The notes below the pieces were generated by a model, which made no database searches, was not told the DNA's origin, and saw nothing but the letters and a program-made list of their open reading frames with translations. Shown one piece after another: positions 8,749 through 8,866 of a DNA stretch of 64,000 nt. This DNA is from Octopus vulgaris (Eukaryota), in contig OX597816.1 of the NCBI GenBank assembly GCA_951406725.2, positions 62,806,001 to 62,870,000 of the forward strand. The letters are read 5' to 3'. A program made the translations under genes and the position numbers. How positions within the stretch are numbered: position 1 is the first letter of the stretch; every line of letters starts with the position of its first letter.

Positions 8749-8866
8749 CCCCTCTGCAAAGGAATTTTATTTAATTCTTTCGCAGGAAGGATTAGTTCGA
8801 TGAGACGTGTTCTGTCCTCACCTTCGAAACACGCTGGAGTTGAACTAGGGACAGATGATGAAGGGG
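8749..8866 (+). ncRNA. Rearranged (non-circularly permuted) hammerhead ribozyme motif, probably decayed (C3>A)
   Basis: CGTG-T-T-CTGTCCT (8806-18), CCTTC-GAAA-CACG (8821-33), GGGACAG-aTGATGA-AGGGG (8848-66); stem I 7 bp, stem III 5 bp, plus helices 8793-8800/8840-47, 8786-90/8821-25, 8749-53/8862-66; lies in a T-rich PLE-LTR-like segment 8575-8990. Confidence 0.7.

Follow-up and report, generated by a model that had tools for sequence, protein, structure and literature searches.

A predicted split-stem-II hammerhead in a non-coding, probably Penelope-like repeat of Octopus vulgaris and its likely inactivated copy

The locus and its architecture

The stretch of DNA analyzed here, referred to as the window, comprises 64,000 nt of the Octopus vulgaris genome (assembly GCA_951406725.2, contig OX597816.1, forward-strand positions 62,806,001 to 62,870,000). 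At about 8587–9087 on its forward strand lies a 5′-truncated copy of a non-coding repeat with a unit of ~760 bp and TA-rich flanks, designated family A. This copy contains a hammerhead-like motif (8749–8866), all parts of which are on the forward strand. The motif starts with the 5′ strand of a short helix, designated a (8749–8753), which pairs with 8862–8866 through five Watson–Crick pairs out of five, at pair probabilities of 0.97–0.98. Hairpin H (8754–8785, −10.8 kcal/mol) comes next. It directly abuts helix a at its 5′ end and stem II at its 3′ end, occupying the interval between the two with no base left unpaired. The 5′ strand of stem II (8786–8790) is a perfect partner (5/5 Watson–Crick) of the bases that adjoin the GAAA sequence (8821–8825), lies upstream of the predicted cut and shows covariation across families. 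After it comes the 5′ strand of the stem I–II interaction helix (8792–8798), which is paired at 7/7 positions with 8842–8848, next to stem I, with double-sided changes in two columns.

A stem III strand (8806–8810), ending in U16.1 and pairing with 8829–8833, precedes N17, a U at 8811. Cleavage is predicted between 8811 and 8812, where the first strand of stem I begins (8812–8817, 6/6 Watson–Crick with 8849–8854). From there, a 3-nt linker (8818–8820), similar to that of type SGC hammerheads and 3 nt long in 34 of 35 family A matches, leads into a block (8821–8833) made up of the 3′ strand of stem II (8821–8825), GAAA (8826–8829) and the other stem III strand (8829–8833). The remaining elements are the 3′ strands of the interaction helix (8842–8848) and of stem I (8849–8854), contiguous over 8842–8854, core positions 3–9 (8855–8861) and, immediately 3′ of A9, the 3′ strand of helix a (8862–8866). 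All proposed helices pair in the window copy, which also retains GAAA, the A15.1–U16.1 pair (8810–8829) and a NUH site with U17. The family shows the three hammerhead stems I, II and III with covariation and the G10.1–C11.1 pair. The CUGAnGA core of the window copy departs from that of the family at position 3 (8855), which is A and not C, and the C3–G8 pair that the family has is absent here.

The blocks follow one another as site (8806–8817), GAAA (8821–8833) and core (8849–8861), which is the order S-G-C and not the circular order C-G-S of the canonical types I, II and III. The S-G-C order, the 3-nt linker between stems I and II and the I–II interaction helix are all as in type SGC. What departs from that type is block C, as the 5′ strand of stem II does not directly follow CUGAnGA. 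The layout can be derived from a type SGC hammerhead by opening the link between A9 and 10.1 and moving the 5′ strand of stem II, together with the interaction strand behind it, to the front. We infer that G8786 corresponds to G10.1, detached from A9. Judged from its sequence, the motif is a hammerhead topology with a split block C, a new form of a known ribozyme class for which cleavage is predicted. We rejected, by reasoning, a model in which three tandem units together restore the ordinary order, since every helix closes inside a single unit.

The family A repeat and its mobility

Over about 8587–9087, the window copy is about 92–97% identical to most other copies. A DNA search with this copy returned 1522 candidates, and the 40 that were scored had 97–100% identity. 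Family A is young, as the median mismatch to the window copy is 2.9% (77 of 90 copies, aligned over >90 nt). In two tandem loci, where units are arranged head to tail, the repeat period is 772 and 754 bp. Inverted partners are frequent among the copies, as are (TA)n flanks. Among 90 copies picked by a 3′ motif, 12 continue into a preceding unit and the other 5′ ends are scattered, with no common upstream junction. None of these 90 copies is attached to an open reading frame (ORF) with an N-terminal GIY-YIG and a C-terminal reverse transcriptase (RT) domain. The (TA)n insertion bias, the tandem and inverted copies and the 5′ truncation are Naiad-like traits that are also common to other Penelope-like clades.

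Like the non-LTR retrozymes (PMC7229834; bioRxiv 10.64898/2026.07.22.740005), for which a derivation from Penelope-like elements has been proposed, family A consists of non-coding units that can be arranged head to tail, each with one hammerhead motif. Retrozymes are, however, defined by type I hammerheads, whereas family A has the S-G-C order and consists mostly of truncated single units, the tandems seen being under two units long. Family A is best described as a likely non-autonomous, Penelope-like and retrozyme-like element.

A Penelope ORF beside copies L010 and L050 was considered as the partner ORF of family A and rejected as a separate insertion, because its 3′ end is its own and carries an ordinary minimal hammerhead; a Pfam search with this ORF returned 0 families. 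Family A copies adjoin a young Penelope-like element with an open RT-end/GIY-YIG frame (L091:2606–4700 and L092:5618–6529). In two copies of this element the frame is 97% identical at the amino acid level. The element carries its own minimal hammerhead and is a candidate mobilizer in trans.

Copy 5′ ends and predicted cleavage

The motif of the family is predicted to cut the element's own RNA after N17, and the positions at which genomic copies start bear on this prediction. For 90 family A copies, selected by a motif at +154 from N17, 20 of the 5′ ends lie at +1..+24, 2 at −25..0, 42 further upstream and 26 at +33..+147. Between −4 and +25, an interval picked after an earlier, overlapping sample, there are 0.0126 ends per nt, compared with 0.0021 on the upstream side and 0.0027 on the downstream side (p about 1e-6). 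Family B, a second family with the same layout, served as a replicate in which the interval (+1..+25) was set beforehand. Here, 16 of 70 ends fall within it when one copy is used as the ruler (p 0.004 versus upstream, 2e-5 versus downstream) and 19 of 70 with another (2e-5 and 5e-7). A few tandem partners are counted twice in these 5′-end counts.

Alternatively, the structure could be conserved although cleavage in family A, with its U17, is too slow to be relevant. The 5′ ends would then accumulate because RT stalls in the pseudoknots. A hammerhead with U17 is slower than one with C17 or A17. The predicted cut is spanned by 44 of the 90 family A copies, and most 5′ ends lie 7–20 nt 3′ of the cut and not at +1. 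In addition, the published rates of SGC ribozymes are slow (0.007–0.19 per min; PMC10085705). Nevertheless, we regard this explanation as unlikely. U17 fits the NUH rule (PMC3884650). The excess of ends also stops at the site itself, with the 20 ends on its 3′ side facing only two on the other. An RT moving 3′ to 5′ would first run into the structure near +55, and no excess of ends is seen there. In family B, 6 of 70 ends lie at −2..+2 and the excess breaks off in the same way; an intact core is found in 32 of 41 full-length copies. Partial cleavage, re-ligated circles or multimeric templates would each be compatible with the site being spanned by about half of the copies (model in PMC4209133 and PMC7229834). 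As a genome-level readout, the pile-up of 5′ ends could help to clarify what hammerheads do in Penelope-like elements.

Upstream and downstream partners of stem II

The sequence-only reading of this locus had noted an alternative stem II downstream of the core and suggested that the fold could switch. The pairing itself exists (8822–8825 with 8863–8866, two G–C and two G–U pairs), and it opens the possibility that family A is a plain type SGC hammerhead with a downstream stem II, or a two-state control switch. Four such pairs can form in 39 of 41 family A matches and in 4/4 matches of the sister family. They would place a G–C pair beside GAAA and one extra base after A9, much as in Penelope minimal hammerheads, which have an extra base between 9 and 10.1 (PMC4209133). 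Only two of the four pairs are Watson–Crick, however. At −2.6 kcal/mol, the downstream helix is also weaker than the upstream stem II (−4.6) and than helix a (−7.4), whose pairing takes up the same bases. Of nine family representatives, only four can form it, always with two wobbles, and five lack it, and none of 20 family B matches can. Finally, a downstream stem II leaves the conserved upstream strand unexplained. The suggested switch is not sustained by these comparisons, and we give a downstream stem II, in either form, little credence.

The split stem II, with its strand upstream of the cut, is what the other copies favor. A descriptor that omits stem II gave 82 distinct core matches in the fetched loci, which fall into seven groups. 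The upstream strand forms 5/5 pairs in 67 of these 82 matches and the downstream strand in 4. When the stem II strand of family A was swapped against the upstream regions of other families, 0 of 656 comparisons paired, although this control was less clean in groups with a GC-rich stem II (N, 43/220; C, 19/84). Under a looser filter, 88 of 92 matches have an upstream stem II (shuffled, 517 of 4600). The a/H junction is found in 52 of 92 (shuffled, 80 of 4600).

Core position 3 and probable loss of activity

Exact-pattern counts on the genome assembly (2.8 Gb, 227 contigs) place the window copy within its family. At core position 3, C is found in 626 of 637 copies, A in 2, G in 4 and T in 5, and N17 is U in 485 of 494. 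All but one of the 29 nearest copies carry C at 8855, and for copies L002 and L003 this base is the sole difference from the window copy. As A3 occurs in only 2 of 637 copies and C in 626, the window copy is a rare mutant. These counts, which give the copy consensus at 8855 and 8811, agree with the proposal made from the letters alone that a core with A for C3 (8855) and U at position 17 (8811) is a decayed copy of a second family. The U17 was no part of that decay, being the state of the family.

It had also been suggested that an A3–U17 pair could simply extend stem I. In a pseudoknot-free ensemble, the pair probability of U8811–A8855 is 0.82 in the window copy versus 0.0 in the intact L002, and the stem I duplex reaches −9.9 kcal/mol in the window copy versus −8.5 in L002, in line with this suggestion. 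In the window copy, A3 could not pair with G8 and would pair with U17 instead, lengthening stem I. A related arrangement has been described: C3–G17 stacked on helix I is the published reason for the weakness of minimal ribozymes with G17, while hammerheads stabilized by tertiary contacts tolerate this pair (PMC3884650). From the unchanged G8, the modeled A3–U17 pairing and the analogy to C3–G17, the window copy is likely inactive through C3-to-A.

That A3 might instead mark a functional variant, or a subfamily with another core pairing, is very improbable. One more copy does have A at this position, but a count of two in 637 is on a par with the other substitutions. In natural core variants, positions 3 and 8 change together, to U3–A8 (PMC3088659, PMC4209133), whereas G8 is unchanged here, and four public contig sets give C at 8855, with a small share of T in two of them. 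The C3-to-A change in this single copy is ordinary decay, and the interest rests in the family. Together with L002, the window copy forms a natural one-base allele pair.

Covariation across families

Support for the individual helices comes from nine natural representatives, one per family or subfamily, hand-picked and with registers optimized for their own pairs only. Under these conditions, Watson–Crick pairs make up 44/45 of the stem II positions versus 95/320 after swapping strands between representatives, 53/54 versus 124/384 for stem I, 42/45 versus 122/320 for stem III, 47/54 versus 151/384 for the interaction helix, 34/36 versus 95/256 for hairpin H and 34/45 versus 120/320 for helix a. 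The closing 4 bp of hairpin H are paired at 35 of 36 positions, and G10.1–C11.1 is present in eight of nine representatives. In an alignment of family A and its sister family A2 (22 copies), 97.6% of 666 cells pair, against 39–47% when the partners are slid by 1–3 columns, which argues that these helices are not due to chance. Five pairs in this alignment have double-sided changes, a count that relatedness inflates. Helix a is the weakest part of the structure. The representative of the Naiad-type group N has 3 flush pairs, none of the 15 matches of this group has a 4-bp flush a/H junction, and family B fits helix a only with the first pair left open.

The window holds a family B copy with the same split layout and an intact core on its reverse strand (21030–21175, with C3 at 21052). 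The first base of its stem II 5′ strand (21118, the inferred G10.1) departs from the family state and is unpaired. This copy is probably the first rearranged hammerhead of the earlier reading. Five or more additional families, which combine the split layout with other helix sequences, are represented by L093, L096, L098–L117, L118–L137 and L129. In such families N17 is C or A, U being mainly a feature of family A. An arbitrary 400 kb of genome added no families, as BLAST found only 4 family B pieces there and the strict core descriptor 0 matches. The same descriptor found 0 matches in each of 10 shuffles, and a pattern scan of metagenomes for the motif found 0.

Established models respond little to the motif. 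A focused Rfam scan of it gave no hammerhead match, and the best 150 of 521 matches in a scan of the whole window were swamped by microsatellite matches. The pseudoknot-free fold of the motif reaches only z = −1.8; ViennaRNA cannot form crossing helices, and the stability of the full fold is therefore outside this model. These two results are what could be expected if core words and helices were chance matches in an ordinary repeat, a reading that we consider next to negligible, as it is contradicted by six helices that covary across families around fixed core letters and by the absence of descriptor matches in all 10 rounds of shuffled DNA.

Proposed mechanism

We favor, at a probability of about 0.8, the reading that the window holds a likely C3-to-A-inactivated copy of a non-coding, likely non-autonomous Penelope-like repeat, whose intact copies are predicted to form a split-stem-II self-cleaving hammerhead. 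In this hammerhead, the bond between A9 and 10.1 would be replaced by a four-way junction of the core A9–G12 arm, helix a, hairpin H and stem II. Helix a would stack on hairpin H and keep A9 beside G10.1, so that the usual core could form. The stacking geometry of this proposal is based on known hammerhead structure. By cutting tandem or read-through transcripts after N17, the ribozyme would define the 5′ terminus of the template, and a Penelope-like RT/endonuclease that targets (TA)n would copy this template in trans.

Comparison with known hammerheads

The closest relatives in layout are the type SGC ribozymes, HRIMA-1 and its variants (Eckert et al. 2023, PMC10085705). They share with the family the order of site, GAAA and CUGAnGA, a short linker between stems I and II (typically 3 nt), a helix joining the other sides of these stems and, as far as intact family copies are concerned, the full core consensus. 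In the published type, however, CUGAnGA continues into the 5′ strand of stem II and the interaction strand, and the authors took this block to be unsplittable. In the family, this stem II strand is found some 70 nt further upstream, and the gap is closed by helix a together with hairpin H. Contrary to the published rule, CUGAnGA and its stem II strand are thus not contiguous, and because of this broken contiguity current descriptors and covariance models miss the family. Furthermore, that paper found no SGC motif in genomes of known organisms, whereas each of the present families has hundreds of genomic copies. Non-circular permutation thereby moves from anonymous metatranscriptome RNAs to animal genomes.

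The Penelope minimal hammerheads (Cervera and de la Peña 2014, PMC4209133) resemble the family in residing in a Penelope-like repeat, in having G10.1–C11.1 and an irregular 9/10.1 link, and in that processing of tandem precursors has been proposed for them. They are of type I in ordinary order, with a tiny palindromic stem III, and are thought to act as dimers. The family, in contrast, has a 5-bp stem III, crossing helices and all strands in one unit. A search of the full-text literature, with most subscription journals outside its scope, found no report of a split-block or a genomic SGC hammerhead. The term type-SGC occurs in this literature in the 2023 paper only, and none of five host or family names appears in its supplement (PMC10085705).

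Relation to Naiads

Naiads have been reported to lack a canonical hammerhead, with some labeled ‘HHR_core’ or ‘HHR_half_core’ (Craig et al. 2021, PMC8557442). They resemble family A in their (TA)n targeting and in their tandem and inverted insertions; family A, in contrast, has no ORF and shows no BLAST similarity to the one Naiad-type copy tested. We read the layout of Naiad 3′ ends by eye in the last 300–600 characters of 31 of the 54 consensus sequences in the supplement, named by file order. Seven of these 31 ends, from four phyla, have the same layout with other helix letters: Obim and Ovul (octopus), Amil and Anas (coral), 3_Chem (hydrozoan), Plae (acanthocephalan) and, more loosely, Bfor (ctenophore). 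By eye, the a/H junction is flush in the coral and acanthocephalan Naiads. The layout was not seen in the viewed part of the other 24 ends, five of which (Parc, Hpol, Smim, Esco and 1_Dst) have cores that appear to be in ordinary order. No hammerhead was seen in the viewed part of the remainder.

The O. vulgaris genome contains 603 exact matches to a 16-nt motif taken from the octopus Naiad consensus, and none to the reversed motif that served as a control. The Naiad-type copies in this genome retain the split layout. Upstream of one of them (L174) lies a 78-aa thumb-like frame that resembles, by eye, the end of Naiad_Omin. A protein search with this frame found nothing, two of its peptide words are absent from the searched part of the supplement text, and none of the other 7 of the 8 extended loci has a thumb-like frame.

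We think it probable that this topology, which falls outside the six three-block permutations and in which the core is threaded through a four-way junction at A9/10.1, is an old, active hallmark of one Naiad branch (ctenophore, cnidarians, acanthocephalan and octopus) and of high-copy non-autonomous repeats, where it defines template 5′ ends. If so, covariation would for the first time support a non-circularly permuted hammerhead in the genomes of known organisms, and part of the reported absence of hammerheads from Naiads would be accounted for. Other Naiad 3′ ends look different by eye. Among the consensus sequences of File S5 (PMC8557442), those of 1_Movir, 4_Chem, Mphi, Mmer and perhaps Mley may carry twister-like motifs, and HDV-like motifs may be present at those of CGi, Tgra, 1_Skow, 1_Pfla, 2_Pfla, 1_Chem and 2_Chem. 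Naiads may swap ribozyme classes.

Other features

Three observations lie beside the families described above. On the reverse strand of L073, from about 318, there is a 179-aa GIY-YIG-like frame, presumably of another Penelope-like clade, whose repeated 3′ end flanks a family B copy. At 42620 on the reverse strand of the window lies a Penelope-type minimal hammerhead in ordinary order, the only match to that pattern in the window. Finally, a 3-kb inverted repeat (12616–15551 and 15804–18776), 97.4% identical with a 252-nt spacer and consisting mostly of microsatellites, could be either a real fold-back duplication or an assembly artefact.
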